Assembly: GCA_037129215.1 (NCBI GenBank)
Contig: JBAXVH010000001.1
Location: forward strand, 1-44,468
Length of the DNA stretch: 44,468 bases
From: Bacteroidota bacterium
GTDB taxonomy: Bacteria > Bacteroidota > Bacteroidia > Chitinophagales > Chitinophagaceae
Direction: 5' to 3'
The notes beneath the pieces were generated by a model. The model made no database searches. It was not told where the DNA came from and saw nothing but the letters and a program-made list of their open reading frames with translations. Shown here in pieces: positions 1-44,468 of this stretch (position 1 is its first letter; every line of letters begins with the position of its first letter). The translations under genes were made by a program, and so were the position numbers.

Positions 1-55
1 CGGGCGGTGTCGTAACGTCAGGTATGGCTATTTATGATACGATGCAATTTATCAA
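1..55. repeat. Terminal exact repeat, copy 1 (identical to 44414..44468)
   Basis: Both window ends read cgggcggtgtcgtaacgtcaggtatggctatttatgatacgatgcaatttatcaa. The repeat lies inside the clpP reading frame, so it is most simply the overlap of a circular or circularly permuted molecule linearised within clpP. Confidence 0.95.
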
Positions 56-392
56 ACCAGATGTAAGTACAGTGTGCATGGGTCAAGCGGCCAGCGCTGC
101 TGCGTTATTGTTATGTGCCGGCGCACCAGGAAAACGGCTTTGTTTGCCTAATGCACGTGTGATGATTCACCAACCTTTGGGCGGCTACCGAGGTCAGGCG
201 ACAGATATTGAGATTCATGCGCGTGAAACGATGGCCGTCAAGGAACGTTTGAACGCAATCATGGCAAAGCATACAAAGAAAACGACTGACCAAATTATGC
301 GAGATACAGAACGTGATAATTTCATGAATGCGAATCAAGCTTTGGATTATGGATTAATTGATAAAATAATGCATAACCGGAATGCTATCTGA
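1..392 (+). CDS. clpP: ATP-dependent Clp protease proteolytic subunit ClpP, C-terminal part (5'-partial in window; continues from 44197..44413 when the ends are joined)
   Basis: The frame is open from base 3. Translation [37 protein letters not shown]...[22 protein letters not shown]...DTERDNFM matches conserved cellular ClpP blocks, including catalytic Ser (GQAAS), His (MIHQP) and Asp (ERD). 217 nt + 392 nt = 609 nt = 202 aa plus stop. Confidence 0.92.
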
Positions 393-400
393 GGATTTAT

Positions 401-661
401 ATGAAATATCTTACAAAACAGCTTAATTTATCCAAACTCTCTACTAAAGAGTTGATTGAAGAACGTCATAGACTACGCGAAATAATGAAAGAGCTCAAAG
501 ATGAAGCTCATGCTATTTCCAGATATTGGGACGATATTAAGTTAGAATTGAAAGTTAATCTTACTCTACATGAATTAGACGCTAAAGAAATAGAACTGAT
601 GAGAACTAGATCATCTAATCCTTTATCAAATAAAGAACTTGCTGCATTAGATTTACAATAA
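401..661 (+). CDS. Hypothetical protein, predicted coiled-coil (86 aa)
   Basis: ORF starts 9 nt after the clpP stop, preceded by gaggattt. Charged heptad-like sequence. No recognisable family. Confidence 0.55.
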   Translation: MKYLTKQLNLSKLSTKELIEERHRLREIMKELKDEAHAISRYWDDIKLELKVNLTLHELDAKEIELMRTRSSNPLSNKELAALDLQ

Positions 662-715
662 TATATACCCGAATATACCTGGGTATACACATAATGTCTT
701 ATATGAGGATAAACT

Positions 716-1150
716 ATGTATAAATCAATTGGATTAACTTTGGGCTTATTAATTTCTGTCAATACATATGCCATGACTTTTGAACATGCCAGAGATATTT
801 ATAAACATGTTCTAAAAGCTAATCATATTGTATTTGCTCCTTCATTACATTTAGATAAATCACCAGACATTAATGCCTATAATACAGGCTTTACTATTAG
901 TATTAATCAAGGCATGTTGAACTATGTACGTAATGATGATGAGATGGCATTAATAGTAGGTCATGAATTAGGCCATTCTAAAGACGGCGATATAGACAAT
1001 GAACTAACAGCTGATAGTTATGGAGCTACGGCTATAATCCGAGCAGGATATAACAAATGCAGGGGTGCTCAAGCATTAGCTAGACTACATGATATTGGTG
1101 ATAGGGCTCATCCTCCATCAACTTATAGAGTTAAACACTTAGGTTGTTAG
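716..1150 (+). CDS. Secreted short M48-family Zn metallopeptidase (paralog of 37363..37947)
   Basis: N-terminal signal-like segment (LTLGLLISVNTYA), then INAYNTG...DDEMALIVGHELGHS (HExxH), downstream NELTADSYG...RAGYNKC...HPPSTYR. This is the pattern typical of M48 (LoiP/YcaL-like) peptidases. RBS-like gaggataaact precedes the ATG. Confidence 0.7.
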   Translation: MYKSIGLTLGLLISVNTYAMTFEHARDIYKHVLKANHIVFAPSLHLDKSPDINAYNTGFTISINQGMLNYVRNDDEMALIVGHELGHSKDGDIDNELTADSYGATAIIRAGYNKCRGAQALARLHDIGDRAHPPSTYRVKHLGC

Positions 1151-1541
1151 TTATATATGGCGGTAGTGATGTGCCTTAATATGAACTACCGTATAATAGC
1201 CCCTATGAAGACAGGGGCTAAGGAAACTTAAGGGGGGGACAGACATTTACTAGCGTAAATGAATGGCCTATCCCCTCTGTCTTTATCTTATTAGCTTTAA
1301 TCAAATGTCTGTCATCTCCCTCCCAATCCCTCCCCTTCTGTCAAGCAGAAATATGGAGGTCTTGTCCGTTAATTTACTCAAGAGAGTAAGAATTCTTTAA
1401 TCTATAGGATTAAAAGAATTCCTATTAGGGGTTAGGACCCCAAAGTAATTGACTGATGGCAAGAGTGGGTATACGGCCATCAACTACTTCTCGCCTCTTA
1501 CATAGCCTCTAAGCAGCCGGCCTAATAAAACACAGCTCAAC

Positions 1542-1631
1542 CATGAATCGAAGATTCATAATCTACGCATTTAGCCCCTCGCCAAGCTCGTGCCTACTCG
1601 GACATGAATTTTATGATTCATAATCCTCGCA
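1542..1631 (+). repeat. Two copies of a 28-29 nt hairpin-containing unit, CATGAAT(N3-6)(G)ATTCATAATCnnCGCA
   Basis: 1542-1569 is catgaatcgaagattcataatctacgca and 1603-1631 is catgaattttatgattcataatcctcgca. Each folds as ATGAAT(C)/(G)ATTCAT with a different loop, so the stem is conserved while the loop varies. Confidence 0.7.
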
Positions 1632-1726
1632 GTCACTAATACTTAGTCACTAAACCCCTGGTGCTTAAAGGAGTGGAACACGACAAATACTGGAGTAGGT
1701 TACGACAAAACTTGGTGAACCTAGGG

Positions 1727-1739
1727 GGAATTTCCGAAC
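1727..1739 (+). repeat. GGAATTTCCGAAC motif, copy 1 (copy 2 at 2000..2012 overlaps the -35 region of the rightward promoter)
   Basis: Exact 13-mer present twice, 273 bp apart. Confidence 0.6.
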
Positions 1740-1774
1740 TCCATGTGGGGGTATCGTCCGGAAAGAAAACCCAG

Positions 1775-1914
1775 TGTTTTCAAGCACTTAAGAAAATGTT
1801 TTCAAGGACCTAGGAAGTGGAACCAGAGCAGGAACATTCATAGCTATTATATCTAGTATGACTAGAAATAAAGAATCAAAAATAAACCATTTAATGTTTT
1901 CAAGGGCTTAGGAA
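1775..1914 (+). repeat. Three copies of a 20-bp motif, TGTTTTCAAGnnCnTAnGAA (iteron- or operator-like)
   Basis: 1775-1794 tgttttcaagcacttaagaa; 1797-1816 tgttttcaaggacctaggaa; 1895-1914 tgttttcaagggcttaggaa. Copies 1 and 2 are 22 bp apart. An AT-rich stretch (about 1840-1895) lies between copies 2 and 3. Confidence 0.65.
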
Positions 1915-1965
1915 AATGTTCCCTAAGTTACACATTTACTTTAAAAACACCAGTATAGCAGTGAT

Positions 1966-1983
1966 TGTTCCCTATCAGGAACA
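1966..1983. promoter_or_regulatory. Palindrome TGTTCC-ctatca-GGAACA (operator-like)
   Basis: Perfect 6-bp arms. The GGAACATT half-site also occurs at about 1831 and, inverted, at about 1916. It lies about 35 bp upstream of the promoter at 1997..2024. Confidence 0.45.
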
Positions 1984-1996
1984 TTGGTGTCAGGTA

Positions 1997-3364: not shown

Positions 3365-3838
3365 ATGGATTATGATGAAAATGGCAAAGCAGGGGCAGGA
3401 CGCCCATGTAAATTTGAACCGTGGATGTGTGAAAAAATATTAGAAATAGCTAGTAACGGTGGTCACCAAGCTGCTATGATGCAAGCTATAGGTATTAAAA
3501 AAACTCAATTTCACACATGGAAAAAAGAAATTCCAGAATTCAAAGACGCAATTGAAGAAGCTAAACTAATTAGCCAAAGTGTATATGAAAATATATTACT
3601 TCAAGGAGCCATGGGAAAAATTCCTGGATTTAATTTTAATTCTATTTCATTATTAATGCATAATAAATTTCCTGATGAATATAAACGAGGGTCTAATGGC
3701 AGTACTGTTTCTAGTACAGAAATAACAATTAATCAATTACATTTAAGTCCTAAAGAAATAGATTATAAGATAGCACAAAAATTAGAAAAATTACAAGCTC
3801 TTGGTATAGACTTAAAAGGGATTGATAATGACTCTTGA
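3365..3838 (+). CDS. terS: Terminase small subunit
   Basis: Lies immediately upstream of, and overlapping, terL. The N-terminal GRPCKFEPWMCEKILEIASNGGHQAAMMQAIGIKKTQFHTWKK block is the HTH-type motif common in small terminases. Confidence 0.75.
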   Translation: MDYDENGKAGAGRPCKFEPWMCEKILEIASNGGHQAAMMQAIGIKKTQFHTWKKEIPEFKDAIEEAKLISQSVYENILLQGAMGKIPGFNFNSISLLMHNKFPDEYKRGSNGSTVSSTEITINQLHLSPKEIDYKIAQKLEKLQALGIDLKGIDNDS

Positions 3839-5297
3839 AACTAAGGAAGACTTACAAAAAGAGTTATTAGAGTTATTAGAAGAAAAAGAACGTCAAGTAG
3901 AGTTTAATAAAATCTCTACATTGTTTCCCGCTGTAGGACCCTTTCGTAGAGAATTGTATCCAAAGCATATAGCATTTATGAATGCTGGTAAAGATTTTTC
4001 TCAAAGAGCTTTCATCGCAGCAAATCGAACCGGCAAAACGGTTTCAGGAGCTGCTGAGATGTCTTATCATTTAACAGGACAATATCCTGAATGGTGGGAA
4101 GGAAGACGTTTCTTAAATGCTATCAGTGCATGGGCAGCAGGAGTATCAAATCAATCAACAAAAGAAATTCAACAATATGAATTAATAGGGGATTTATCTA
4201 ATTCTGGTACAGGATTAATTCCTAAAGATTGTATTTTAAAAATAACAAAAAAACCAGGGGTTGCTGATGCTGTAGAAACAGTATTTGTACAGCATATAAG
4301 TGGCGGAACAAGTCAATTAACATTTAAATCCTATGAACAGGGTAGAGATAGTTTTCAAGGAACTAAAAAACAAGTTATATGGTTAGATGAGGAACCAAAA
4401 GATAGGTCTATATTTACAGAATGTCTAACAAGGACAATGGACAAATATAACCCCGGTATAATATATTGTACTTTTACACCACTTTTTGGTTTATCTGATG
4501 TAGTTATGAACTTTTTACCAGATGGTAAAGTTCCAGAAGATGGTTTTGATCCATTACACCCATATAAATTTGTTACACAAGTTAACTGGGAAGAAGTACC
4601 TCATCTATCTGAGTCCCAAAAGAAAGAAATATTAGATAGTTATTCTCCTCATGAACGTGATGCACGTAGTAAAGGAGTTCCATCTCTAGGAGCTGGAGCT
4701 ATTTATCCTTATACAGAAGACAGTATTGTTACTGAACCATTTAAAATACCTAGTTGGTGGCCTAAAGCCTATGGTTTAGACGTAGGTTGGAACAAAACAG
4801 CCGCAGTTTGGGGGGCTTTAGATCCTGATAGTAATAAAATATTTATTTATTCCGAACATTATGAAGGATTTGAACAACCAGTTGTACATGCCCAATCTAT
4901 AAAAGCTAGGGGAGATTGGATTACAGGAGCAATTGATCCTGCATCTGAAGGATCTAGCCAAGTAGATGGTAAAGCTTTATTTAATTTGTATGAAGAAGCA
5001 GGATTAATTTTAGAATTTGCAGATAATTCGATAAATGCTGGTATAATGAAAGTAGGACAAATGTTTGCGTCCGGGCAATTAAAAATATTTAGCACATGTA
5101 AAAATCTATTAAAAGAATATCGTGTATACAGAAGAGATGAAAATGGTAAGATTGTTAAGAAAAATGATCATGCTCTAGATGCACTCAGATATTTAATGAT
5201 GACAGGAATGGATTATATGTCAATTCCTATTGATCCTGACTACACAGAAAAAGCCGATACCAATGACAGCGGCAGAGATGAATTTACCGGCTATTAA
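3822..5297 (+). CDS. terL: Terminase large subunit
   Basis: Walker A AANRTGKT, Walker B VIWLDEEP, C-terminal nuclease block KKNDHALDALRYL. 491 aa. The start could be 3822 or 3828. Confidence 0.95.
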   Translation: MIMTLETKEDLQKELLELLEEKERQVEFNKISTLFPAVGPFRRELYPKHIAFMNAGKDFSQRAFIAANRTGKTVSGAAEMSYHLTGQYPEWWEGRRFLNAISAWAAGVSNQSTKEIQQYELIGDLSNSGTGLIPKDCILKITKKPGVADAVETVFVQHISGGTSQLTFKSYEQGRDSFQGTKKQVIWLDEEPKDRSIFTECLTRTMDKYNPGIIYCTFTPLFGLSDVVMNFLPDGKVPEDGFDPLHPYKFVTQVNWEEVPHLSESQKKEILDSYSPHERDARSKGVPSLGAGAIYPYTEDSIVTEPFKIPSWWPKAYGLDVGWNKTAAVWGALDPDSNKIFIYSEHYEGFEQPVVHAQSIKARGDWITGAIDPASEGSSQVDGKALFNLYEEAGLILEFADNSINAGIMKVGQMFASGQLKIFSTCKNLLKEYRVYRRDENGKIVKKNDHALDALRYLMMTGMDYMSIPIDPDYTEKADTNDSGRDEFTGY

Positions 5298-7488
5298 ATT
5301 AGAGACCAATTGGATATTAAATATGACTAAAGACACGAAATTAACATTAGACAAATTAAAAAACAGTGGTAATATCGCCGACCTATTAGATGAATATAAA
5401 TTATCTGAAATTGGTGAACAAGTTTACAATGGTTATAAGATTGATGAAGATAGTAGATCTGAATGGAAAGAAACTGTTGATAAAGCAATGGATATTGCTA
5501 AACAAAAAGTAGATCCAAAAAACCATCCTTGGCCAGGGGCTTCTAATGTTAAGTTCCCATTAATCTCTGAAGCTTCTATTCAATTTGCTGCACGTGTAAT
5601 GCCTGAAATTATTCAAAATGATAAGGTTATTAGAGCTAATATTGTAGGCCAAGATTTAGACGGTGCTAAATTACGCAGGGCTCATCGCGTATCTGAATAT
5701 ATGTCTTATCAATTATTGTGTGAATCTACAGATTGGGAAGATGGAACAGATAAATTATTACAAGTTATTCCTGTATTAGGTACAGCATTTAAGAAAACAT
5801 ATTATGATGCTGCCGAAAAGAAAAATGTTAGTATGTTATGTGTTCCTGATAAAATTGTTGTAAATTATGCAACACAAAGTTTAGAAACAGCACGAAGAAT
5901 TACACATGTAATTACAATGTATTCTAATGATATTATAGAACGTCAAAGACGTGGTATATTTTCTGAATCTGTAGACCCTGAATTATTAAGACCAATAGAT
6001 TCTTCTGATAATGATAAAGATTTTGCTATTGAGTTACTAGAACAACATTGTTATTTAGATTTAGATGATGACGATTATAAAGAACCTTATATTGTTACAA
6101 TACATAAAAATAGTAGACAAGTTCTTAGAATTACACATAGATTTAATACAATAGAAAAGAATAAAAATGGTGAAGTAGTATGTATTGAACCAATACATTA
6201 TTTTACAGACTTCCATTTTATTAGATCACCAGATGGTGGATTCTATAGTATTGGTTTTGGTAGTTTGCTTCTCCCTATTAATTCCGCAATTAATACCTTA
6301 ATCAATCAGCTATTAGACGCAGGAACATTAAGTAATACACAAGGCGGCTTTTTAGGTAGAGGCTTAAGAATTAAAAATGGTGAATTAAAGATTAAAATGG
6401 GTGAGTGGAAAGTATTAGATGCTGCTTCAGGCACTAATATTTCTCAAAATGTGTTCCCATTACCTGTAAGAGAACCTTCTCAAACATTATTTAGTTTATT
6501 AGGCTTATTATTACAAATGGGTAAAGATCTTTCTTCTTCTACAGACGTGATGAAAGGACAACAACCTGCACAGAATGTAGCTACAGGTACAATTAGTGCT
6601 TTAGTAGAGCAAGGTAGTAAGATATTTGCTGCAATTAACAAAAGATTATATAGAAGTTTAAAAAAAGAATATACAAAACTTTATGCTTTAAATGCTCACC
6701 ATCTTTCTGATGCAAAATATAAAGAAATTATGGATGATCCAGAAGCAGATGCTAAAAAAGATTTTGAATTATATAGTATGGATGTTTATCCTGTATCAGA
6801 CCCTTCTTTATCTAGTGATCAACAACGATTAAATAGATCTATGGTTATGCACCAACTCCCTACAGTTGATATGAGAGCTGCTGATGAGTATACATTACAA
6901 TCTATGAGCTTAGATCAATCAACTATTGATAGATTATTACCAAAACCAGACCCTAGTGCACCCCCTCCTCCAGATCAACAACTTATTTTAGCGCAAATTC
7001 AACTAATTAATGCTCAAATAGTTGAAATGGGGCACAAAATGACAGTGCTGGCTCAAAATGCTAGTATTGGACAACAAGATATGGCATTAAAAGCTGCTAT
7101 GACAGATTCACAAATACAAGAATCTGCTGCTAGAACAGTTAAAATGCAAATTGATGCTTCTCATGGTGATAGTAAAGTTGCTATTGCTGCGGCTAAACTT
7201 AATTCTTCTGATTTAATGAAGGGTGCTCAATTTAATCATAAACAAGAACTAGATCAAGCTAAATTAGTATTAAATTCTATGGATGCTAAAACTAAAGCAA
7301 CTAAAGTAAGTACAGATTTAACTAAAACACTTATTAAAGATAAGACTGAGAATAAAAAAATAGAGTTGGATGCTAAAGAAAAAGGAATACCAAAATATTC
7401 TGAACATGATATTTTACATACGGCCAAATTAAAGGGATTATCTCCTGAACAGGTCAGAAATATTCTGAAAGAAAAGGATAAATCATGA
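5230..7488 (+). CDS. Portal protein (start uncertain: 5230, 5278 or 5323)
   Basis: About 720-750 aa ORF directly after terL, with a long helical C-terminal region. Call rests on position and size. Confidence 0.75.
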   Translation: MILTTQKKPIPMTAAEMNLPAIKLETNWILNMTKDTKLTLDKLKNSGNIADLLDEYKLSEIGEQVYNGYKIDEDSRSEWKETVDKAMDIAKQKVDPKNHPWPGASNVKFPLISEASIQFAARVMPEIIQNDKVIRANIVGQDLDGAKLRRAHRVSEYMSYQLLCESTDWEDGTDKLLQVIPVLGTAFKKTYYDAAEKKNVSMLCVPDKIVVNYATQSLETARRITHVITMYSNDIIERQRRGIFSESVDPELLRPIDSSDNDKDFAIELLEQHCYLDLDDDDYKEPYIVTIHKNSRQVLRITHRFNTIEKNKNGEVVCIEPIHYFTDFHFIRSPDGGFYSIGFGSLLLPINSAINTLINQLLDAGTLSNTQGGFLGRGLRIKNGELKIKMGEWKVLDAASGTNISQNVFPLPVREPSQTLFSLLGLLLQMGKDLSSSTDVMKGQQPAQNVATGTISALVEQGSKIFAAINKRLYRSLKKEYTKLYALNAHHLSDAKYKEIMDDPEADAKKDFELYSMDVYPVSDPSLSSDQQRLNRSMVMHQLPTVDMRAADEYTLQSMSLDQSTIDRLLPKPDPSAPPPPDQQLILAQIQLINAQIVEMGHKMTVLAQNASIGQQDMALKAAMTDSQIQESAARTVKMQIDASHGDSKVAIAAAKLNSSDLMKGAQFNHKQELDQAKLVLNSMDAKTKATKVSTDLTKTLIKDKTENKKIELDAKEKGIPKYSEHDILHTAKLKGLSPEQVRNILKEKDKS

Positions 7489-7790
7489 GAAAGAAACCTG
7501 TTGAATTAGTAGATTTATTACCCGAGATGATTAATGTAGATGATACAACAGATCCTGGTCTCGAGCCATTTAAAATACCTAATATGGATATACCAAATAA
7601 AGTTCCTAAAATTGAATCATATATGCCGATAATACCTGATAATATGGCACAAGGATATCAAGAATTTAAAACAAGAAATCCAATGGTTAATATAGATGAT
7701 TTAGGGATTATGACTCCTGATGACGCGACCCCCGCAGATTTATTGCCAGATTATGAAAATGTAGACGATCTACAAGGATTTAATACATGA
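7485..7790 (+). CDS. Hypothetical acidic protein (head module)
   Basis: ATGA overlap with the portal stop. 101 aa, Asp/Pro-rich. Confidence 0.6.
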   Translation: MRKKPVELVDLLPEMINVDDTTDPGLEPFKIPNMDIPNKVPKIESYMPIIPDNMAQGYQEFKTRNPMVNIDDLGIMTPDDATPADLLPDYENVDDLQGFNT

Positions 7791-8053
7791 AAATAGACAT
7801 TAGTAATTTTAGAACTTGGAAAAAAGATCCAATTACAATTGCCTTATTTAAAGCTTTAGAAGACGTAAGAAAAAATATTGAAAGTGGTATGATCAACGCT
7901 AACAATATCCTCGCCGAGGATTGCCAATCACGTATGACTAAATTATTGGGCATGCGAGAAGGAATTGATCTAGTGTTAGAGATAACTTGTGAAGACTTAG
8001 ACGATGGAGACGACTTAGATGTTGAAGAGACAGATAAAACCAGCAGGACATAG
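7787..8053 (+). CDS. Hypothetical protein (head module)
   Basis: ATGA overlap with the upstream gene. 88 aa with an acidic C-terminus. Confidence 0.6.
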   Translation: MKIDISNFRTWKKDPITIALFKALEDVRKNIESGMINANNILAEDCQSRMTKLLGMREGIDLVLEITCEDLDDGDDLDVEETDKTSRT

Positions 8054-8360
8054 AGTTTTGGTGAAGTTAAAAAGAGTAAGTGAAGTAAAAGAAGTCACTT
8101 ATGGAGACCAAAAAATTATTGTTGAAGTAAAAACCAACAAGAAATTGAATGCAGAAAAACTTAGTACTCAAGAAGCTAGAATTGTAGCTTTAGGGCCTAC
8201 AGCTTTTAAAGCATTTGATGATGGGCACCCATGGTGTAAAGAAGGAGATCTTGTCATGATTTGTCGATATTCAGGTGATGATAGAACTGATATTGAAGAT
8301 GATGAAATCTATAGAATTATTAATGACGAAGATGTTCAAGCAATTTTTGTAGGAGAATGA
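8019..8360 (+). CDS. GroES/Cpn10-like co-chaperonin
   Basis: IKPAGHRVLVKLKRV resembles GroES IRPLHDRVIVKRKEV. QEARIVALGPT resembles RGEVLAVGNG. KEGDLVMICRYSG and EIYRIINDEDVQAIF resemble VKVGDIVIF..GYG and EVLIMSESDILAIV. The mobile-loop region is longer than in GroES. Confidence 0.7.
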   Translation: MLKRQIKPAGHRVLVKLKRVSEVKEVTYGDQKIIVEVKTNKKLNAEKLSTQEARIVALGPTAFKAFDDGHPWCKEGDLVMICRYSGDDRTDIEDDEIYRIINDEDVQAIFVGE

Positions 8361-8361
8361 T

Positions 8362-9171
8362 ATGTCAATAGAAGACGAAATTAAAACAGAACTAAAAGCT
8401 CAGGGTATTATTGAAGATAAAGAACAACATGAAGAAATTATAGAAGAACCTGTAGACCATTCTGGTAAAGATTATACAGCTTTTGAAAAAGAACAGATGG
8501 ATAAAGGTTGGAGTCCTGATGGTGTTAAATCAGCAGAAGAATATGCTCGCACAGAACCTCTATATGAAGAAATCAAAGCTCGTGGTAAACAATTAAAACA
8601 AATGCAGAAAGCTATTGATTCTTTAACAGAGCATATGACCAAACAAGAAAAATTAGCGTACAATAGAGCTTTAGATACATTACGAAAAGAAAAAGAAGAA
8701 GCTGTTTTAAGAGGTGACTTACAAACTGTTACACAAATTGAACATGAACAAGCAAAATTAACCGCAGTTCCAGCATCTATTCCTGAAGCTGATGCTTTCA
8801 CAGACAAATATGGACATATCTTTAAATCTCCTGGATTTGAAGAAATGGAAATTGCTGAATTCGTTAAACAACGTGATATTGATTTAATGTCTAGAAAATT
8901 ATCTCCAAAAGATCATATGCAAGCACTAGAAGAACATATGGTAAAACGATTCCCTAATTATTTTAATAAAAAAGAAGTCGTTAGTAGAGATAATTCTTAT
9001 GTTGAAATGGGGGATGGTGATAATGTAGCCAGAAAATCATCTAATAGAAAATATTCTTTTAATGATTTATCATATGAACAGAAGAAGGTAGCACAAGATT
9101 TTAAATCTCGTGGTATAATGACTGTAGAGAAATACATAAAAGATTTAGTTGACTTAGGTGAACTTAAATAA
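8362..9171 (+). CDS. Putative scaffolding protein
   Basis: 269-aa, highly charged and helical, located between portal and capsid genes. Call rests on position and composition only. Confidence 0.45.
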   Translation: MSIEDEIKTELKAQGIIEDKEQHEEIIEEPVDHSGKDYTAFEKEQMDKGWSPDGVKSAEEYARTEPLYEEIKARGKQLKQMQKAIDSLTEHMTKQEKLAYNRALDTLRKEKEEAVLRGDLQTVTQIEHEQAKLTAVPASIPEADAFTDKYGHIFKSPGFEEMEIAEFVKQRDIDLMSRKLSPKDHMQALEEHMVKRFPNYFNKKEVVSRDNSYVEMGDGDNVARKSSNRKYSFNDLSYEQKKVAQDFKSRGIMTVEKYIKDLVDLGELK

Positions 9172-9184
9172 TTTAGATGGAGTT

Positions 9185-9604
9185 ATGAGTATGACTAATA
9201 AACATTTAGACAGTAGTAAAAGGCCACAGAGAACGCCATTACATAAGCAGCGAGCATTAGCAGCCACTCATCGGGAAGGATGGGAAAGACGGTATGTTAA
9301 TGAAACTCCTGATAGAATTGAATCTTACATGCAAGCAGGTTGGACTCCAGTAATGGATAAAAATGCTAATAGTAGCGATGAAAGAGCTCAATCAGAATCT
9401 CAATTAGGCTCAGTAGTACGAAAAGTAGTGAATAAAGATATCAATGCTTCTTGTCGAACAGCAATTTTAATGGAGATTCCAAAAGAAATTTATGATGAAG
9501 ATCAAAAAGATAAACAAAAAGAAATTGATCGCGTCGAGGCTTCATATGACCCAAGTAAGTTTGCCCAATCCGGTGCAGATTATGGGGATATGGAGATTAA
9601 ATAA
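9185..9604 (+). CDS. Hypothetical head-module protein
   Basis: ATG at 9185 is preceded by gatggag. The track ORF starts at 9158, inside the upstream gene. Confidence 0.55.
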   Translation: MSMTNKHLDSSKRPQRTPLHKQRALAATHREGWERRYVNETPDRIESYMQAGWTPVMDKNANSSDERAQSESQLGSVVRKVVNKDINASCRTAILMEIPKEIYDEDQKDKQKEIDRVEASYDPSKFAQSGADYGDMEIK

Positions 9605-9624
9605 TTTATTAAAGGAAAAAACAA

Positions 9625-10209
9625 ATGGCAAATTTAAACGCGCCACGCGGTTTTGAACCTGTACGACACTCTGATGGTAAACCTTACACAGGCCAATGCA
9701 ATCGGTATTATAAAGATGCTACAGCCGGTATTATTGGCGTAGGCGATCCTGTAATTCGTGTTGTATCAAGTTCCGATCCCTACGGTGGCCCTGAAATCGT
9801 TCGTGCTACAACTGGCTCTGCTATTACTGGTGTTGTTATTGGTATTGAACCTGTCCTAGGAAATCTAAGTCAAGTAGGTTACTTAGCTGCTGCTGATATT
9901 GGTTATGTATTAGTTGCTGATGACCCAAACCTACTCTTTGAAGTACAAGAGGGTGGAGCAGGCACTGCACTAGCTGTTACAGATGTTGGTAAACATATTA
10001 ATAGCGTCACTGCATTAAATGCAGATACAACTATTGGTCGTTCTAAATATCAAATTGATAATAATGCTAAAGCTACAAACAACACCTGGATTATCGTAGG
10101 TCTTTCTCCAAAATCAGATAACGCTGTAGGAACATATGCTAAATGGTTAGTTAGACCCAACTTGCATACTGAAGTTAATGCTAGTGCTACCAATGTTACG
10201 GAGATATAA
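9625..10209 (+). CDS. Putative capsid-associated or decoration protein
   Basis: Strong RBS (aaaggaaaaaacaaATG), 194 aa, Gly/Val/Ala-rich and beta-type, immediately upstream of the capsid gene. Confidence 0.4.
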   Translation: MANLNAPRGFEPVRHSDGKPYTGQCNRYYKDATAGIIGVGDPVIRVVSSSDPYGGPEIVRATTGSAITGVVIGIEPVLGNLSQVGYLAAADIGYVLVADDPNLLFEVQEGGAGTALAVTDVGKHINSVTALNADTTIGRSKYQIDNNAKATNNTWIIVGLSPKSDNAVGTYAKWLVRPNLHTEVNASATNVTEI

Positions 10210-10212
10210 TAT

Positions 10213-11118
10213 ATGATAAATACAGGTGCGATTTCCAAGGCCTTGCGCCCTGGAGTAAATTCCTGGTTTGGTCTTGCTTATAATCAATATCCAGAAGAAT
10301 ATAAACAAATCTTCGATACAATGATGTCATCAATGAATTTTGAAGAAGATGTTAATGTTAATGGATTTGGTTTAGCAGCAGTAAAACCAGAAGGCATGGC
10401 TTTATCATATGATAGTATGCAACAAGGGTTCTTGAAACGCTATGTTCATGTTACTTATGCATTAGGTTATGTAATTTCTAGAGAAGCTATTGAAGATAAT
10501 CTCTATATTAAATTAGCTCAACAACGTTCTGAAGCTTTGGCTCGTTCTATGAAACAAACTAAAGAAAACGTTGCTGCTAATATTCTAAATAGAGCATTCA
10601 ATAGTTCTTATACTGGTGCTGATGCTTTAGAACTTTGTTCTACAGCTCATTTACTTTCTAAAGGCGGTACTTTCTCTAACAAGATTGCTACAGCTGCAGA
10701 TTTAAGTGAAGCATCTTTAGAACAAGCTCTTATTGATATCGCAGGTTTTGTTGATGATGCAAATCTTCGAATGAGTGCTCGCGGAATGAAATTAATTATT
10801 CCTCGCCAACTTCAATTTGAAGCTCAACGTATTCTTAAGAATATGGATCGTCCAGGAACTGCTGAAAGAGATATTAATGCTATGGTTAGCCTTGGTATGT
10901 TGCCAGGTGGTATTGTAATGAATCATTATCTAACTGACACTGATGCATTCTTTATTAAAACTGACGTAGCTGAAGGTCTAAAACATTTCTCTCGTAGAGC
11001 ACTAGAAATCAAAGATGATAGTGACTTCGATACTGAAAATGTTAAGTTCAAAGCTTCTGAAAGATTTTCTTTTGGATGGACTGATCCTCGCGGAATATAT
11101 GGAAGTCCTGGTGCTTAA
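10213..11118 (+). CDS. Major capsid protein (HK97-fold type inferred)
   Basis: 301 aa. Followed by a terminator hairpin, as expected for a highly expressed late gene. Sequence pattern (...LSEASLEQALIDIAGFVDDANLRMSARGMKLIIPRQLQFEAQRIL...) resembles major head subunits. Confidence 0.72.
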   Translation: MINTGAISKALRPGVNSWFGLAYNQYPEEYKQIFDTMMSSMNFEEDVNVNGFGLAAVKPEGMALSYDSMQQGFLKRYVHVTYALGYVISREAIEDNLYIKLAQQRSEALARSMKQTKENVAANILNRAFNSSYTGADALELCSTAHLLSKGGTFSNKIATAADLSEASLEQALIDIAGFVDDANLRMSARGMKLIIPRQLQFEAQRILKNMDRPGTAERDINAMVSLGMLPGGIVMNHYLTDTDAFFIKTDVAEGLKHFSRRALEIKDDSDFDTENVKFKASERFSFGWTDPRGIYGSPGA

Positions 11119-11124
11119 ATCAAC

Positions 11125-11155
11125 AGTCCAGAATTTAAAAACCTCTGGACTTTAT
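11125..11155 (+). terminator. Hairpin terminator after the capsid gene
   Basis: agtccaga (11125-11132) pairs with tctggact (11144-11151), an 8-bp stem, followed by tttat. Confidence 0.5.
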
Positions 11156-11185
11156 CCAATTATATGATAGTATTCGAATAAAGAA

Positions 11186-11194
11186 TGCTATAAT
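11186..11194 (+). promoter_or_regulatory. Possible extended -10 promoter element (TGcTATAAT) upstream of the tail genes
   Basis: Lies in the 183-bp intergenic gap. No good -35 was found. Confidence 0.3.
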
Positions 11195-11301
11195 ATACTT
11201 GAACGCAAAGAAATAGTTAGAATTGGCCTCTTTATGGGGCCAGCTCTTCTCAAGTTTAACAATTAATTATAGATAACTATAATAATGGAGAAATAAAATA
11301 T

Positions 11302-12267
11302 ATGCCAATTTCAAATTACCCACATGGATTTGCCAACGGCCTTACGGTACGTGGACTCCCTATTAATTTAGCTCATCCAGGGAAAGTATTCTTCTTAAAT
11401 AACTCCGCAGTAGTTGCCGATGGCGGTATTGGTGGTAGTGATGGTAATCTCGGAAGTTATCAAAAACCATTCAGCACATTAAGTGGTGCTATGGCCTCCT
11501 GTACAGCTAGTCGTGGTGATATCATCATGGTTATGCCTGGACATGCCGAAACAATTTCAAGTGCTACAGCTCTAACACTCAGTGTTGCTGGTGTTGCTAT
11601 TGTAGGTTTAGGTGTAGGGTCTCTAAGACCAACATTTACCCTAGATACAGCTAATACAGCTACTATTAATGTTACAGCAGCTAATATTTCAATTAGTAAC
11701 TGTCTATTTGTAGCTAATTTTTTAGCTATTGCAGCTTTATTCACTACAACTACAGCTAAAGGCTTCAGTTTAAATAATTGTGAATTTAGAGATACTTCAT
11801 CAGTTCTTAATTTTAAAGCTATTGTTGATACTAGTGCTACTTCCAATAATACTGATGGTTTAGCTATTATTGAATGTCAAATGAATGGTTTAGGCACTAC
11901 TTCTGGTTCATGTCTTGTAAAAATGAATGGAACTAATCGTGGTTTAACTATTAAAGACAGTATTGTTAAACATGCTGCTACAAGCACTGCAGGTTTAATG
12001 CCTATTGCCACAGGTAAAGTAGTTACAGATGTAGAGATTAGCAGAAATGTTATTAGTTTAGTTGGTGCTCAAGCAGCAACTACAGGTATTATTATTACTA
12101 CTGATGGAACTACTAATGCTGGTATTATCAGATATAATCTAATTACAAGTTTAGATGACACATCTGAAATCTTAGTAACAGCATCTTCTGGTTTCATGTT
12201 TATGGAAAATAAATACTCTAGTTCTGTTGCATTGTCTGGCTACCTACTACCAGGTGCTGATTCTTAA
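11302..12267 (+). CDS. Right-handed beta-helix repeat protein (tailspike- or depolymerase-like)
   Basis: Recurrent beta-helix rungs: ANISISNCLFVA, GFSLNNCEFRD, LAIIECQMNG, LTIKDSIVKH, VEISRNVISL, GIIRYNLITS. Confidence 0.55.
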   Translation: MPISNYPHGFANGLTVRGLPINLAHPGKVFFLNNSAVVADGGIGGSDGNLGSYQKPFSTLSGAMASCTASRGDIIMVMPGHAETISSATALTLSVAGVAIVGLGVGSLRPTFTLDTANTATINVTAANISISNCLFVANFLAIAALFTTTTAKGFSLNNCEFRDTSSVLNFKAIVDTSATSNNTDGLAIIECQMNGLGTTSGSCLVKMNGTNRGLTIKDSIVKHAATSTAGLMPIATGKVVTDVEISRNVISLVGAQAATTGIIITTDGTTNAGIIRYNLITSLDDTSEILVTASSGFMFMENKYSSSVALSGYLLPGADS

Positions 12268-12271
12268 TAAA

Positions 12272-12296: not shown

Positions 12297-12328
12297 TTAT
12301 TATAAACAGCTAAAAGAGGAGATTTATT

Positions 12329-37362: not shown

Positions 37363-37947
37363 TTAAAACTTATATATTAAATGACACATTGGAAAATCCA
37401 TACTAGCTTCTCTAGTATCTAAAGGAGGGTGAATATTGTCAAGACTAATAGTTTCATGACCATATTTATCAATCATTCGTTGCCAAAGGGCCTCACCTGC
37501 ACATGGGTCATAACCAGCACGCAAAGCTAAATAAACACCATATCGATCAGCGTTTGATTCATTAATAGTAGGAGATATAACGGGAATATCCCAATTTAAT
37601 AAATGTCCTAGCATAACATGACCAATTTCATGGCCTAAAATAATAGCCATTTCATCGTCTGTTTGTAGAAATTCTAGCATCGCTGTCGTGATTGTAACTG
37701 TTTTGCCGTCTGTGTATGCATTGATTTCGTCACTTTCATCCACAACTAGCGCAGGAAATTTAACACCACTATCTGTATACGCTTGAAGGGTCATAAAAAC
37801 AGCGTTAGCATGTTGTAGTTTTGTTTTTATATCCATTTTGGCTGATTTAAATGCGAAAACACTAGCAAGACTTAGTGTAACTAGAGATATTATAAGGATT
37901 CTGATATATTTATATTGAAATAGTTTTTTCATTGGCTCCATCATCAT
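37363..37947 (-). CDS. Secreted M48-family Zn metallopeptidase (paralog of 716..1150)
   Basis: Signal/TM segment ILIISLVTLSLASVFA. INAYTDG...DDEMAIILGHEIGHVMLGH (HExxH), SNADRYGVYLALRAGYDPC...HPPLDTRE. Confidence 0.7.
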   Translation of the reverse strand: MMMEPMKKLFQYKYIRILIISLVTLSLASVFAFKSAKMDIKTKLQHANAVFMTLQAYTDSGVKFPALVVDESDEINAYTDGKTVTITTAMLEFLQTDDEMAIILGHEIGHVMLGHLLNWDIPVISPTINESNADRYGVYLALRAGYDPCAGEALWQRMIDKYGHETISLDNIHPPLDTREASMDFPMCHLIYKF

Positions 37948-38731: not shown

Positions 38732-39012
38732 GCGTCCTCAATCTGCCATATTCTATTAAAAGCTTCTCTAACAGAAATAGAATTTAATTTAGCTACTTTA
38801 CATATACGATTACAGAACGTATGTAGAAATACAGTATCTCTGTATTTAGCTGCGTCAATTAATACAGCAATCCATAAATGAACTTCTGGATTATATTTAC
38901 CTATTCGGTATTCGCTAATGTCGTGTAAACCACCTAAATAGCTTTTATCAGTAGATAAAGACTCATTATTGGGAACACCATATTCTAGGTTTTTCCATAA
39001 TCCAAATTTCAT
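38725..39012 (-). CDS. Hypothetical protein (95 aa)
   Basis: Co-oriented ORF overlapping both neighbours. Confidence 0.55.
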   Translation of the reverse strand: MKFGLWKNLEYGVPNNESLSTDKSYLGGLHDISEYRIGKYNPEVHLWIAVLIDAAKYRDTVFLHTFCNRICKVAKLNSISVREAFNRIWQIEDAC

Positions 39013-39554
39013 AATGAGGCCTCTTTATTATAATAAGTATTAATTTGGTATCTAATAATTATAACATTTGCTAACATGTGTGATAAATGAAGACATTCAG
39101 ATTCATCATCAAAGTTATCCCCAAATGAATATTTAATATAATGTCTCGCTAAAGCATCTAATAATAATATTATACTTATTTGTTGTTTATAACTGTTTTC
39201 TCTGTATTTACCACTTTGTAATGCTAATGAACGTAATTTTATAAAATCATTAATAATATCTTTTGTTTCTGTAACATTATCATGTAATATTGTATCTTGA
39301 AGCGCTTGTAAAGTAGCTTGTATAACTTTTATATCTTTATTATTTTCTATATTTTTATTTAGTTCCTCAATTAATTCTCCTAGGCCATTAGCCCAGTCAT
39401 TACCGTTTAAAGTAGGTAAAAAACAATATCTAGCTCCTTCAGGCTTCCCTTCTTTTTGTTTCAATACTAGTTCTTCATTAGATAATTCATTTAATTGTCT
39501 ATTATCTTCAATGTCTTCATAATTAGACATAGTATAGTTGTCTGGTGTTAACAT
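39009..39554 (-). CDS. Hypothetical protein, possibly dATP/dGTP diphosphohydrolase-domain-like
   Basis: SGKYRENSYKQ...ALARHYIKY...DDESECLHLSHMLANVIII resembles the KY..NW / RH / D.ESG..HL.H...N pattern of that phage domain family, as remembered. The ATG at 39554 (TAATG overlap, GGAGG RBS) is preferred over 39572. Confidence 0.35.
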   Translation of the reverse strand: MLTPDNYTMSNYEDIEDNRQLNELSNEELVLKQKEGKPEGARYCFLPTLNGNDWANGLGELIEELNKNIENNKDIKVIQATLQALQDTILHDNVTETKDIINDFIKLRSLALQSGKYRENSYKQQISIILLLDALARHYIKYSFGDNFDDESECLHLSHMLANVIIIRYQINTYYNKEASL

Positions 39555-39781
39555 TATGCATCCTCCAAACAATCTTCGTCATAAGGATATTGATGATAAT
39601 TTAAATAATTATCCCAAGCCTTTCTAGCAAAATAATCTTCACTAAAAATAGTAGTTTCGATAGGTGAATTAGTACAATCTTTCACATCAAGTAATGTTAA
39701 TTCTGTATCTTCATCTATAGAATAAAATATTGTTACAGTTTCATTTTCTATATCCATATCAAAATGATATTTATATGACAT
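39554..39781 (-). CDS. Hypothetical acidic protein (75 aa)
   Basis: GGAGAA RBS and a consensus promoter directly upstream. Confidence 0.55.
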   Translation of the reverse strand: MSYKYHFDMDIENETVTIFYSIDEDTELTLLDVKDCTNSPIETTIFSEDYFARKAWDNYLNYHQYPYDEDCLEDA

Positions 39782-41904: not shown

Positions 41905-42480
41905 CTATGGAATATAGTAAAATGGATTTGGTAATTTAAATACTTTTTTAGCGTAGCCGCCAAGTAAATCTGATTTTTGATCGCCTATAGAAGCTATTAT
42001 AACATAACCTTGCTGTTCTATTTCCGCTCTTTTTGTTGTTTTAAATGATGACGCTGAAGACAAATCATTTTTATTTCTTAAAATAATTTGCTCATATTGC
42101 TTATATCCTGCAGAATCAAGGGCTTTTACAGTGTTTTTGCGTAATTTCTCTGATCTACCAGAAAGAAAGAATACTTTAATACCTAATTTGATAGCTTTTT
42201 CATATAATTTGAACACAGGTTTAATAGCTGTGCTGTTAATTTTATTTAGTTGCAACTTTACTTGCCAAGGAAGATTAGCAAAGTCATTAGCGTCTATATC
42301 TGCATAATTTGATATAGAAGTTTCGTCAATATCAAGCACAATACATGAATTTTTAATTTTTTTATTATAATTTTGAATAAAAACCATAGCTTTTTTAGCT
42401 ATAACATCAATTTCATCAAAATAAGCACCAGTATTATAATATTCTCTAAGTTTTAACTTAAGTTGTCCAATATTATCCAT
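41905..42480 (-). CDS. HAD-superfamily phosphatase, class B/C acid phosphatase-like, without a signal peptide
   Basis: Motif I VLDIDETSISN (DxDxT), motif II FFLSGRSEK, motif IV IGDQKSDLLGG. Confidence 0.75.
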   Translation of the reverse strand: MDNIGQLKLKLREYYNTGAYFDEIDVIAKKAMVFIQNYNKKIKNSCIVLDIDETSISNYADIDANDFANLPWQVKLQLNKINSTAIKPVFKLYEKAIKLGIKVFFLSGRSEKLRKNTVKALDSAGYKQYEQIILRNKNDLSSASSFKTTKRAEIEQQGYVIIASIGDQKSDLLGGYAKKVFKLPNPFYYIP

Positions 42481-42510: not shown

Positions 42511-42539
42511 AGTATACAGACTCCATATGTATTTGTCAA
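42511..42539 (-). promoter_or_regulatory. Sigma70-type promoter TTGACA-N17-TATACT (leftward arm of a divergent promoter pair)
   Basis: The reverse complement reads TTGACAaatacatatggagtctgTATACT, upstream of 41905..42480. Confidence 0.55.
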
Positions 42540-43197: not shown

Positions 43198-43208
43198 TAA
43201 GGAGACGT

Positions 43209-43394
43209 ATGTGCCCTATATATGAAAAATATTGTGAAAAATGCGATAAAACAGAGGAATATCTCTTGACACTAAGTAAGAAAGATAATATAATAACATG
43301 TAGAGACTGTAAAAATGATATGACCTCCCTTGTATCCAGCGGTAACTTTAAATTGTATGGCGAAGGGGTATATAAACCAAGTAAAAAGGAGTAA
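43209..43394 (+). CDS. Small zinc-ribbon protein (FmdB-like CxxC...CxxC)
   Basis: MCPIYEKYCEKCDK...TCRDCKND. AAGGAG RBS before the ATG at 43209; the track start is 43179. Confidence 0.55.
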   Translation: MCPIYEKYCEKCDKTEEYLLTLSKKDNIITCRDCKNDMTSLVSSGNFKLYGEGVYKPSKKE

Positions 43395-43397
43395 GTT

Positions 43398-43520
43398 ATG
43401 CAAGTATGTCCAATTTGTAAAAATGAATATATCATTTGTAAATGTAAGTTCTGTGGTCAGTCACCTAACCATAGCGACCCTATTCAGTATCCATTAAGAC
43501 CACCATACAGCAGATTGTAA
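43398..43520 (+). CDS. Small zinc-ribbon protein (40 aa; not in the ORF track)
   Basis: AAGGAG RBS 7 nt upstream. MQVCPICKNEYIICKCKFCGQSPNHSDPIQYPLRPPYSRL. Confidence 0.45.
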   Translation: MQVCPICKNEYIICKCKFCGQSPNHSDPIQYPLRPPYSRL

Positions 43521-43620
43521 AAGAAAACCCGCTCGTACATTTTTCAATGCAGAGGAGCGGGCCATGTTATTTATAGTATAACATTATTCATGGTAACAAT
43601 TGACAGTTGGAGATTTAATC

Positions 43621-43815
43621 ATGCCGAATAAAATTAAAAGAGGGCCTAGTAATGTAGCTTACTTTAAGAATTACTCAGCCCAAGATAAACGTGAAAAGAA
43701 TAAGACTAAGAAAATAGAGAAACATTCAGCTAAGCACCCAGATGATAAACAATCTATTGAACGGAAAGTACCTGATTATGGCGTAGGATGGGAAGGTAGA
43801 AAGAAAAGAGAGTAA
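43621..43815 (+). CDS. Small highly basic protein (64 aa)
   Basis: GGAG RBS before the ATG at 43621; the track start is 43600. Lys/Arg-rich. Confidence 0.5.
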   Translation: MPNKIKRGPSNVAYFKNYSAQDKREKNKTKKIEKHSAKHPDDKQSIERKVPDYGVGWEGRKKRE

Positions 43816-43829
43816 ATATTTAAAAATTA

Positions 43830-43838
43830 TGCTATAAT
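43830..43838 (+). promoter_or_regulatory. Possible extended -10 element (TGcTATAAT) upstream of the tRNA and clpP
   Basis: Intergenic. No convincing -35. Confidence 0.3.
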
Positions 43839-43924
43839 TATATTATGTAGACATACAGAATGAATAATCGTTACGCTTTCGACAGGTCTATAGAAGAGCT
43901 AAGCACCTCTAAAAAATGCTATTT

Positions 43925-44000
43925 GCGCCCGTAGCTCAGTTGGGTAGAGCATTAGCATTGTAGCTGATGGAGGCAGGTTCGAATCCTGCCGGACGCACCA
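43925..44000 (+). tRNA. tRNA-like gene with a non-canonical anticodon arm (closest to tRNA-Thr UGU lacking one loop nucleotide), encoded CCA
   Basis: Acceptor GCGCCCG/CGGACGC (one C:A mismatch), D arm GCTC-AGTTGGGTA-GAGC, T arm GCAGG-TTCGAAT-CCTGC, discriminator A plus CCA. The anticodon stem TTAGC/GCTGA leaves only a 6-nt loop (ATTGTA), or 8 nt if the closing C-G pair opens. Confidence 0.7.
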
Positions 44001-44010
44001 TTTGTATTGT

Positions 44011-44032
44011 ACTAGGAACGAACTAGGAACGC
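44011..44032 (+). repeat. Tandem 11-bp direct repeat ACTAGGAACG(A/C)
   Basis: actaggaacga actaggaacgc lies just 3' of the tRNA. A related cctagaaca follows at about 44056. The AGGAAC core also recurs in the 1.8-2.0 kb region. Confidence 0.6.
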
Positions 44033-44196
44033 TAATCACTTAGAATGGCGCACCAGTCCTAGAACAGACGGGGCGAATCGTCTATAAATAGCGCCCATGG
44101 ATTTTGCAAAATATTATTTTGCATCCACCCTTCAAATTGTCTTGATCATATCAAAATCCGAAAACAAATGCTAAGAATAGTCAAGGAGAATAAAGA

Positions 44197-44468
44197 ATGG
44201 TAGAGACTGCAGCTAGTCATTTAGTTCCAATGGTCGTTGAACAAACCTCTCGCGGGGAGCGGTCTTACGATATATATTCTCGCTTACTAAAAGAACGTAT
44301 TATCTTCTTATTAGGTCAAGTTGAAGATAATATGGCCAATCTAGTCGTTGCCCAATTGTTATTTCTTGAGTCAGAAAACCCAGAAAAAGATATTTTTCTC
44401 TATATCAATTCACCGGGCGGTGTCGTAACGTCAGGTATGGCTATTTATGATACGATGCAATTTATCAA
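44197..44468 (+). CDS. clpP: ClpP, N-terminal part (3'-partial in window; continues at 1..392)
   Basis: [89 protein letters not shown] matches the conserved cellular ClpP N-terminus. Confidence 0.92.
44414..44468. repeat. Terminal exact repeat, copy 2 (identical to 1..55)
   Basis: See the feature at 1..55. Confidence 0.95.

Follow-up and report, generated by a model that had tools for sequence, protein, structure and literature searches.

Why should a phage genome of some 44 kb carry five genes for protein quality control, and do these five genes work as one? The question is raised by contig JBAXVH010000001.1 (44,468 nucleotides, nt; this whole stretch is called "the window" below), in which an initial annotation had recognised a ClpP peptidase, a ClpX-like unfoldase, a GroES-like co-chaperonin, and two secreted M48 metallopeptidase paralogs, and had proposed that together they remodel host protein quality control in both cytoplasm and periplasm. 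The two ends of the window overlap by 55 nt (1..55 = 44414..44468), which closes the assembly into a circle with a true length of 44,413 bp, and the window represents a whole phage genome in circular form, with genes of the podovirus type (short-tailed type). All five genes are indeed present, with the GroES-like and both M48 genes at the positions first given for them, and their family assignments survived profile, structure, and alignment tests; from the counts in 50,697 deposited phage records, the combination is unusual in a genome of 44 kb. Our answer, held with slightly better than even confidence, is that the five genes are best explained as three functionally separate units, one for head assembly, one for cytoplasmic proteolysis, and one acting at the envelope. 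The conserved core of the set is the pair formed by the ClpX-like ATPase and a mini-M48 peptidase, which recurs throughout the lineage.

The ClpX-like AAA+ ATPase has 337 residues when it is read, like its homologs, from the second Met of its open reading frame (ORF). It matches Pfam AAA_2 with an E of 5e-13, its best sequence matches in the Protein Data Bank (PDB) are ClpX, and in a fold search all of the top 50 PDB hits were ClpX (query-normalised template modelling score of 0.51-0.70, mostly 0.6-0.7; E 1e-13 to 1e-15). The motifs of the AAA+ core are in place, namely, GNSGTGKT (Walker A), VFIDEVDK (Walker B), LVGRI (Arg finger), and GVRILR (sensor-2), with no variation in the Walker A and B motifs, the Arg finger, or the sensor-2 Arg among 35/35 aligned ClpX-like members. 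The segment RSIGF (residues 197-201) aligns with the ClpP-docking IGF loop of ClpX, and the same 35 aligned members all have a hydrophobic-Gly-Phe tripeptide, (I/L)GF, at this docking-loop position. The AlphaFold2 (AF2) model, with a predicted local distance difference test score (pLDDT) of 83, is of low confidence exactly at the pore-1 and IGF loops, which for the IGF loop is as would be expected of a flexible loop. The scores against the NCBIfam ClpX models stay below the equivalog level (106 bits vs. a cut-off of 359 for NF003745, the best model, and 81.6 vs. 370.75 for TIGR00382). We named the protein ClpX-like given that, by its sequence, it appears to be an AAA+ motor of the ClpP-docking type and not a member of ClpX proper. 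The family comprises about 94 proteins at E < 1e-40, with 38-96% identity, mostly on phage contigs of 30-50 kb. Its alignment against IMG/VR yielded three genuine members of the family (L048-L050), the other 77 loci being ordinary ClpX at 25-33% identity. A ClpX match of any kind is found in 58 of the 50,697 deposited phage records, and among those listed, which are jumbo phages or short fragments, none exceeds 28% identity.

The company kept by this gene was followed in 12 contigs whose ClpX-like genes range in identity from 80% to 39%, within ~10 kb of the query gene in each, by counting local hidden Markov model (HMM) hits together with precomputed Pfam hits. Of these 12 contigs, 10 have a mini-M48 gene besides the ClpX-like one, and the two misses (L049 and L214) are truncated contigs. 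The two genes directly adjoin each other in L130, L132, and L215, and only a diverged Clp-fold protease lies between them in L128, where the order is M48, ClpP-like, ClpX-like; in L048, the order M48, ClpP-like is found again. In both of the latter contigs (L128 9284..9988 and L048 2840..3394), the Clp-fold serine protease directly follows the mini-M48 gene, scores 40-47 bits with CLP_protease, and retains the Ser and the His; that of L048 has no signal-like N-terminus and lacks the ClpP N-terminal loop region. Six of the 12 contigs also contain an SbmA/BacA-like transporter gene, which in the window stands next to the ClpX-like gene (Table 1), and a host-type clpP was found among them in the window species only. 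PADLOC gave no defence-system match to any of the genes, and in the searchable literature, we found no description of phage ClpX-like proteins in small phages, of phage M48 peptidases, or of the ClpX-like/mini-M48 pair.

In the case of clpP, the full product of 202 residues, read across the circular junction, reaches 327.6 bits with TIGR00493 (equivalog cut-off 308.6) and 350 bits with NF001368 (cut-off 249). Its catalytic Ser/His/Asp motifs (GQAASAA, MIHQP, and ERDNFM) are identical to those of the host copy, the N-terminal axial-loop region (a 19-residue segment) is the same as in host ClpP except for one Val/Ile change, and the phage and host proteins show 12 differences in 197 residues, mostly conservative and with the catalytic motifs untouched; the window encodes an authentic ClpP. 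Over 590 nt, the gene shares 95.8% identity with the chromosomal clpP of the host-type contig L044, which shares with a second such contig, L045, the gene order tig-clpP-clpX-lon-hupB-ppiD and a guanine plus cytosine (GC) content of 42.8%. The phage/host homology begins 41 nt before the ATG and stops at the stop codon, and the captured gene has kept a host-like composition, without a drift of its third codon positions to the phage level, and so stands out from its phage surroundings, with a GC of 42.4% vs. 33.4% for the genome and a third-position GC (GC3) of 0.37 vs. 0.18 in phage core genes. In the sister phage (YANG21 scaffold_296, 45.5 kb, with a ClpX-like protein 80% identical to that of the window), clpP and its neighbouring tRNA are absent, with ~190 nt at the corresponding place, while the ClpX-like, M48a, and M48b genes are retained. 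Its near identity to the host gene and its absence from the sister phage mark clpP as a very recent capture of the host's own gene. A ratio of nonsynonymous to synonymous divergence (dN/dS) of 0.23 between phage and host, at a dS of 0.12, indicates that the phage copy has evolved under purifying selection.

The tRNA directly upstream of clpP also points to the host. Its body agrees with the host tRNA-Arg at 62/77 positions in the window and at 70/77 in L040 (9324..9400), an independent 28.5-kb assembly of the same phage species, and the host tRNA-Arg(TCT) lies 1.6 kb upstream of the host clpP (L044 4283..4359). Within the species, the call differs, being Tyr(GTA) in the window and Ile(GAT) in L040, and two different anticodon calls from one host tRNA-Arg(TCT) indicate that the anticodon loop of the captured tRNA was rewritten at least twice inside one phage species. 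The simplest reading of tRNA and clpP together would be that the phage recently took up a host segment in a single event and that an internal part of it was then lost. The host-type contigs also contain, at 2785..4140 of L044/L045, a tyrosine-integrase gene beside a tRNA-Pro/Arg/His/Leu cluster just upstream of tig-clpP; this makes the locus a hotspot for mobile elements, from which capture by the phage may have been easier. As to who the host is, the nearest named relatives of the window's ClpP are Legionella ClpP proteins (86-91% amino acid identity), and Lon and trigger factor of the host-type contigs cluster, at 90% identity, with proteins that bear the name "Legionellaceae bacterium"; in a ClpP pattern scan of genome contigs, the matches listed were of ≤77% identity only and came from other gammaproteobacteria. 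Most likely, the host is an uncultured freshwater Legionellaceae bacterium, an assignment based on gene capture and not on spacers of clustered regularly interspaced short palindromic repeats (CRISPR) or on isolation.

The two M48 proteins are paralogs of each other (40% identity, E 8e-24), both well above the Pfam M48 gathering score of 20.3. M48a has HELGH at residue 83, ELTAD at 96, and HPP at 132, and M48b has HEIGH at residue 106, ESNAD at 130, and HPP at 173; both share an AGY(D/N)xC motif and a single N-terminal hydrophobic segment. Nine lineage homologs keep HExxH and ExxAD, although one of the nine (L133) has YQSD at the ExxAD site. The closest solved relative of M48b is the BepA protease domain, in which the spacer between HExxH and ExxAD is ~50 residues vs. 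~8-20 in the mini-M48 proteins, and against the NCBIfam equivalogs of BepA, LoiP, and HtpX, the phage proteins reach 20-38 bits (cut-offs of 245-570), with no TPR and no multi-transmembrane architecture. M48b has one weak match among the deposited phage records, and thus essentially no homolog there, and a word-based homolog search with it returned 3 proteins, the lineage homologs having been recovered through gene neighbourhoods and a local HMM. Export of the two is suggested by sequence pattern only, with signal- or anchor-like N-terminal segments, a conserved Cys pair, and positive-inside N-termini that are compatible with it. In the sister phage, a DNA cytosine methyltransferase gene (PF00145; L046 10670..11746) lies between M48b and the helicase gene, and this gene is absent from the window.

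The GroES-like protein scores 28.9 bits with Pfam Cpn10 (PF00166; gathering score 21.1) and falls in PHROG 3188, "co-chaperonin GroES". A full-library HMMER search gave 650 cluster representatives at E ≤ 0.001, the family profile aligns over its full length (positions 2-106) with PDB Cpn10/GroES chains at E 1e-9 to 1e-20, and with an AF2 model of pLDDT 93, the best 35 PDB fold hits are all Cpn10, including T4 gp31 at ranks 34-35. With the best NCBIfam GroES score at 27.1 bits vs. a cut-off of 96, the protein is a true Cpn10 homolog of a divergent viral branch. Its mobile loop, with the family consensus GGI and G-DQK-IIV in the window, is longer than that of GroES and is modelled as a hairpin plus an extra helix. 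This GroES type occurs in 8 of the 50,697 deposited records, and it is present wherever the head module is covered (the window, L040, and L130). Its slot is shared with Alcaligenes phage QDWS535 and with HTVC027P, all three having the order portal, GroES, ~270 aa, ~140 aa, ~190 aa, and Mu-gpT-like capsid protein. GroES-only phages are common in aquatic viromes, where GroES is typically followed by a "kinesin-like" gene and then by a head protein (Marine et al. 2017, PMC5649160), and the pelagiphages HTVC023P and HTVC027P have the same arrangement (bioRxiv 10.1101/2019.12.14.876532). Because of its Cpn10 homology and its position in the head module, we take this component to be the ordinary one, already described, that is, a capsid-folding co-chaperonin, presumably using the host GroEL. 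In profile comparison, the phage GroES family matches best the Cpn20 and Cpn23 chains of PDB 7ekq, which are bound there to the Chlamydomonas ClpP core, and the window phage carries both a GroES and a ClpP.

We suggest that these components work as follows. In the head-assembly unit, the GroES-like protein would most likely act in the manner of T4 gp31, capping the host GroEL for the folding of the Mu-gpT-like capsid protein. In the cytoplasmic unit, a hexamer of the ClpX-like protein would dock on ClpP through its (I/L)GF loops, as suggested by the invariant loop and by the repeated recruitment of Clp-fold proteases, and would divert the host ClpP barrel to substrates chosen by the phage, away from the choice of the host ClpX/ClpA. 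In most relatives, the partner would have to be the host ClpP, and the captured clpP with its neighbouring tRNA may add to the ClpP supply during infection. In the envelope unit, one or two exported mini-M48 enzymes, as a rule encoded close to the ClpX-like and replication genes, would act on periplasmic or outer-membrane proteins, with receptor removal or envelope weakening as possible roles. Tentatively, and with clearly less confidence, we also entertain that the ClpX-like proteins are a phage-specific class of ClpP-hijacking ATPases in which the docking loop and the motor are kept, and all parts that select substrates (zinc domain, RKH loop, and aromatic pore loop) are replaced. Such ATPases might commandeer the host ClpP for phage-defined targets, for example, defence or regulatory proteins, and might be genetically coupled, throughout an uncultured lineage of podophages, to an exported mini-M48, often also to an SbmA/BacA-like protein, as a two-compartment takeover kit; the repeated recruitment of the Clp fold, with the complete copying of host clpP as one instance, would then reflect selection for more ClpP capacity.

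Several observations weigh against this reading. The zinc-binding (C4) domain of ClpX is absent, given that the protein starts ~58 residues into the host ClpX and has no zf-C4_ClpX hit; ~19 residues including the RKH loop are deleted; and the pore-1 GYVG is replaced by ASDGF in the window and by (A/G)SGG(I/V/L) in the family, without an aromatic residue in 31/35 members, so classical ClpX-type substrate gripping and tag recognition should not be assumed for a protein of this sequence. The family does conserve an aliphatic residue at the pore-1 position, by which proteins might be translocated, though the lack of an aromatic residue in the pore makes this uncertain. The gene also lies among replication genes, 19 kb from clpP and in another transcription block. 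The Clp-fold proteases of L128 and L048 are highly diverged (about 26% identity over ≤76 residues), and the N-terminus of the former is signal-like, so it may not be a cytoplasmic partner; the idea that ClpP was acquired twice was rejected on these two grounds, and neither protein was counted as a bona fide ClpP. The two M48 proteins align with only ~70 of the 186 positions of the Pfam profile (about 10-82), short of the full catalytic domain, and their export is a prediction made by visual inspection of the N-terminal hydrophobic segments and the conserved Cys pair. To these points comes the short span, described above, over which the 12 contigs were compared. The complete Clp-type protease that had initially been proposed is plausible in view of the kept docking loop, and is weakened by the missing GYVG, RKH loop, and zinc domain.

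The main rival builds on the same features and proposes that the ClpX-like protein does not feed ClpP at all, being either a ClpP-independent remodeller or loader for phage DNA replication or a non-translocating cap that blocks the host ClpP and so shields phage proteins from ClpXP/ClpAP; we give it a minor, though not a negligible, probability. The place of the gene in the replication block fits this proposal, given that its relatives lie between primase and helicase genes in L049 and just upstream of dUTPase and primase-helicase genes in L130, L132, and L215, as do the Gly-rich pore-1 loop, the lost RKH loop, a pore-2 loop that is shortened in comparison with ClpX, and NCBIfam ClpX scores far below the cut-off. 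Against it stands the docking tripeptide in every aligned member, with a flexible loop at that place in the model. Nor is it easy to see why a phage whose ATPase had no use for ClpP, or only blocked it, should have captured an additional host-type clpP and kept it under purifying selection. The Clp-fold protease genes that L128 and L048 have next to M48 and ClpX-like genes count against this rival as well, and no similarity of the ClpX-like protein to DnaC-type or clamp-loader models passed the threshold.

A second rival holds that the five genes are unrelated accessory pick-ups, their apparent concentration being a coincidence together with an annotation bias toward recognisable families. We consider it unlikely. 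In its favour, the five genes are spread over three transcription blocks and have three evolutionary histories, the GroES-like gene has counterparts at its head-module slot in QDWS535 and HTVC027P, in whose examined stretches the other four genes were not found, and clpP is missing from the sister phage. Against it, the ClpX-like and mini-M48 genes stay together in 10/12 contigs, as neighbours in 4, while the identity of the ClpX-like protein falls from 80% to 39%, Clp-fold proteases recur at the M48/ClpX-like locus, and the captured clpP is 98-100% conserved over several independent assemblies. Co-occurrence among relatives therefore splits the set that had been proposed as a unit, holding for the ClpX-like gene with mini-M48, and failing for ClpP, which is restricted to the window species, and for the GroES-like gene, which belongs to the head module of unrelated phages. 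Likewise, a single coordinated programme across cytoplasm and periplasm, as initially proposed, is only partly supported, by the ClpX-like/M48 linkage, and with clpP as a very recent arrival and GroES as a head-assembly gene, the five genes are not one module.

The last and weakest alternative, that clpP is not a phage gene but either host DNA in a chimeric assembly, as the contig break inside clpP, its host-like GC of 42% vs. 33%, and its ~96% identity to a bacterial gene might suggest, or a misread prohead protease, ClpP-like versions of which are common in phages, is very improbable and was rejected in both forms, given that clpP stands in a phage setting in at least three other assemblies from different samples (with the same phage genes on both flanks in L040, inside the contig, and in L041, and with the phage 86-aa ORF after it in L042 and L043), that it recurs at 98-100% identity in further contigs, 37-44 kb in length, and that the gene lies outside the head module, beside the tRNA and M48a and not between portal and capsid, its product scoring 89.6 bits with the ClpP-related head-maturation protease model NF045542 (cut-off 120) while passing the TIGR00493 equivalog level.

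Table 1. Features of the window, with coordinates in the 44,468-nt stretch.
Feature	Position	Strand	Remarks
ClpX-like AAA+ ATPase, 337 aa	24731..25744	-	Final gene of the replication block; ORF could start at 25783
ClpX-like, Walker A	25532..25555	-	
ClpX-like, pore-1	25436..25453	-	
ClpX-like, Walker B	25310..25333	-	
ClpX-like, IGF loop	25142..25153	-	
ClpX-like, Arg finger	25052..25066	-	
ClpX-like, sensor-2	24863..24880	-	
SbmA/BacA-like inner-membrane (peptide) transporter homolog, 271 aa	25800..26615	-	Immediately upstream of the ClpX-like gene; Pfam SbmA_BacA E 1e-19
M48a, 144-aa mini-M48 zinc peptidase	716..1150	+	Pfam M48 E 9e-13, 48.9 bits; N-terminal signal-like segment; 67% copy in sister phage
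M48b, 194-aa mini-M48 zinc peptidase	37363..37947	-	Pfam M48 E 1e-16, 61.9 bits; N-terminal anchor/signal; between primase and helicase; 68% in sister phage
clpP, 5' part	44197..44468	+	Gene spans the circular junction
clpP, 3' part	56..392	+	Stop codon 390..392; Pfam PF00574 CLP_protease E 2e-55
tRNA	43925..44000	+	Directly upstream of clpP; ARAGORN Tyr-GTA; derived from host tRNA-Arg(TCT)
86-aa ORF (orf86)	401..661	+	Between clpP and M48a; 92% in L040, 75% in sister phage
Candidate early promoter	43266..43294	+	Perfect sigma-70 consensus TTGACA-17-TATAAT, 12/12; reads toward tRNA-clpP-orf86-M48a; pattern match only
GroES/Cpn10-like co-chaperonin, 113 aa	8019..8360	+	Head module
Portal	5230..7488	+	Starts the head module; 43% to the gene after TerL in Alcaligenes phage QDWS535; 32% to the gene upstream of the HTVC027P GroES-like gene
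269-aa protein, probable scaffold	8362..9171	+	Downstream of GroES; slot of the literature "kinesin-like" gene; weak DUF7118 hit; 24% to QDWS535 equivalent
Major capsid protein, Mu gpT-like, presumed GroEL/GroES client	10213..11118	+	Pfam Phage_capsid_4 E 2e-11; 51% QDWS535, 48% HTVC027P
Structural block	3365..24621	+	TerS 3365..3838, TerL 3822..5297, portal, capsid, tail genes to 24621
Replication block	40883 down to 24731	-	Lysozyme, primase, DnaB-like helicase, family-A DNA polymerase, 5'-3' exonuclease, PhoH

As for the rest of the genome, a 3-kb region separates the structural and the replication blocks and contains divergent sigma-70-like promoters by pattern match, the overall count of promoter-like sites being not above that of shuffled controls. 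No integrase was recognised among the genes screened in the window, and orf86 has no family match and no NCBIfam or PADLOC hit. TerL is ≤52% identical to that of any deposited phage, the top matches being uncultured spring-water phages and EBPR podovirus 1, and its scan of IMG/VR gave one fragment of the same species (L001, 99%) and one relative at 65% (L002), a database too sparse here for whole-genome co-occurrence counts. A small variable slot exists within the head module, where the 101-aa ORF at 7485..7790, between the portal gene and an 88-aa ORF, has no tblastn match in L001 or L040, the latter having a different 99-aa gene called at this position. A class B (HAD IIIB) acid phosphatase gene lies at 41905..42480 (minus strand; Pfam E 5e-41; 78% copy in the sister phage) and is preceded by an 11/12 sigma-70-like promoter at 42539..42511. 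An 84-aa ORF at 29873..30127 (minus strand), whose match to the PnuC/NMN-transporter family (E 1e-9) is confined to the first ~70 positions of the latter, is kept, similarly short, in several relatives. Finally, at 39009..39572 (minus strand), the replication block has a gene, conserved in relatives, whose product includes the N-terminal domain of dATP/dGTP diphosphohydrolase (E 5e-8), which may hint at nucleotide-pool manipulation or modified DNA.

What is possibly new here is a stripped-down relative of ClpX, with the docking loop and without the known substrate-recognition elements, that occurs in many phages of ~40 kb and is linked to a mini-M48. If our reading is true, it would offer a compact, naturally occurring means to redirect ClpP and a way to ask what portion of ClpX is required to drive ClpP. 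In addition, the phage is tied to an uncultured Legionellaceae bacterium by two sequences from one host locus, the near-identical clpP and the tRNA, and in the searchable literature, only one confirmed phage of the Legionellaceae is described, LME-1 (PMC12407071).

Among known systems, the GroES-only phages of the HTVC023P/HTVC027P type resemble the window phage in having a Cpn10 gene, then a larger gene, then a head protein, and no phage GroEL, and the GroES-like proteins of HTVC027P and QDWS535 are 35% identical to that of the window; HTVC027P and QDWS535 differ in that no ClpX-like, ClpP, or M48 homolog is found in the head-region stretches of 10-12 kb that were examined (the whole genomes were not screened). 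T4 gp31 and RB49 CocO are alike as phage GroES substitutes presumed to serve the capsid protein together with the host GroEL. In contrast to gp31, which it matches at an E of 1e-2 and 11% identity, the window protein is nearer to cellular Cpn10 (E 1e-5, 19-29% identity), and its client would be a Mu-gpT-like capsid protein vs. gp23 in T4. The Chlamydomonas chloroplast ClpP core, capped by Cpn11/20/23 (PDB 7ekq), is a precedent for contact of a Cpn10-type protein with a ClpP barrel; nothing points to such a contact in this phage, and the position of its GroES gene favours capsid folding. BepA, LoiP/YcaL, and HtpX share with the mini-M48 proteins the HExxH, the downstream Glu of ExxAD, the AGYD/N-x-C motif, and HPxxxR, and differ in their length of about 250-490 aa vs. 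144-196 aa and in the TPR or multi-pass membrane domain that the phage proteins do not have. Phages are known to interfere with host proteolysis chiefly by way of small adaptors or inhibitors, and of the full ClpP and ClpX genes in jumbo phages. The latter (Agrobacterium phage Atu_ph07, Bacillus phage G, Salicola SCTP-2, and Lak phages) are alike in having a phage-borne Clp protease subunit and ATPase, but have genomes of 440-640 kb and, by annotation, ordinary ClpX ATPases, whereas the ATPase of the window is 26-28% identical to these, belongs to a separate family on contigs of ~30-50 kb, and is accompanied by a clpP that, unlike that of the jumbo phages, is a near-copy of the host gene. With respect to bacterial ClpXP itself, the differences are the zinc domain, RKH loop, and GYVG that the window's ATPase lacks, its shortened pore-2 loop, and genes that do not form a clpP-clpX operon, while the AAA+ fold, Walker A and B, the Arg finger, sensor-2, and an IGF-type docking loop are shared, as is a ClpP whose catalytic motifs are intact.

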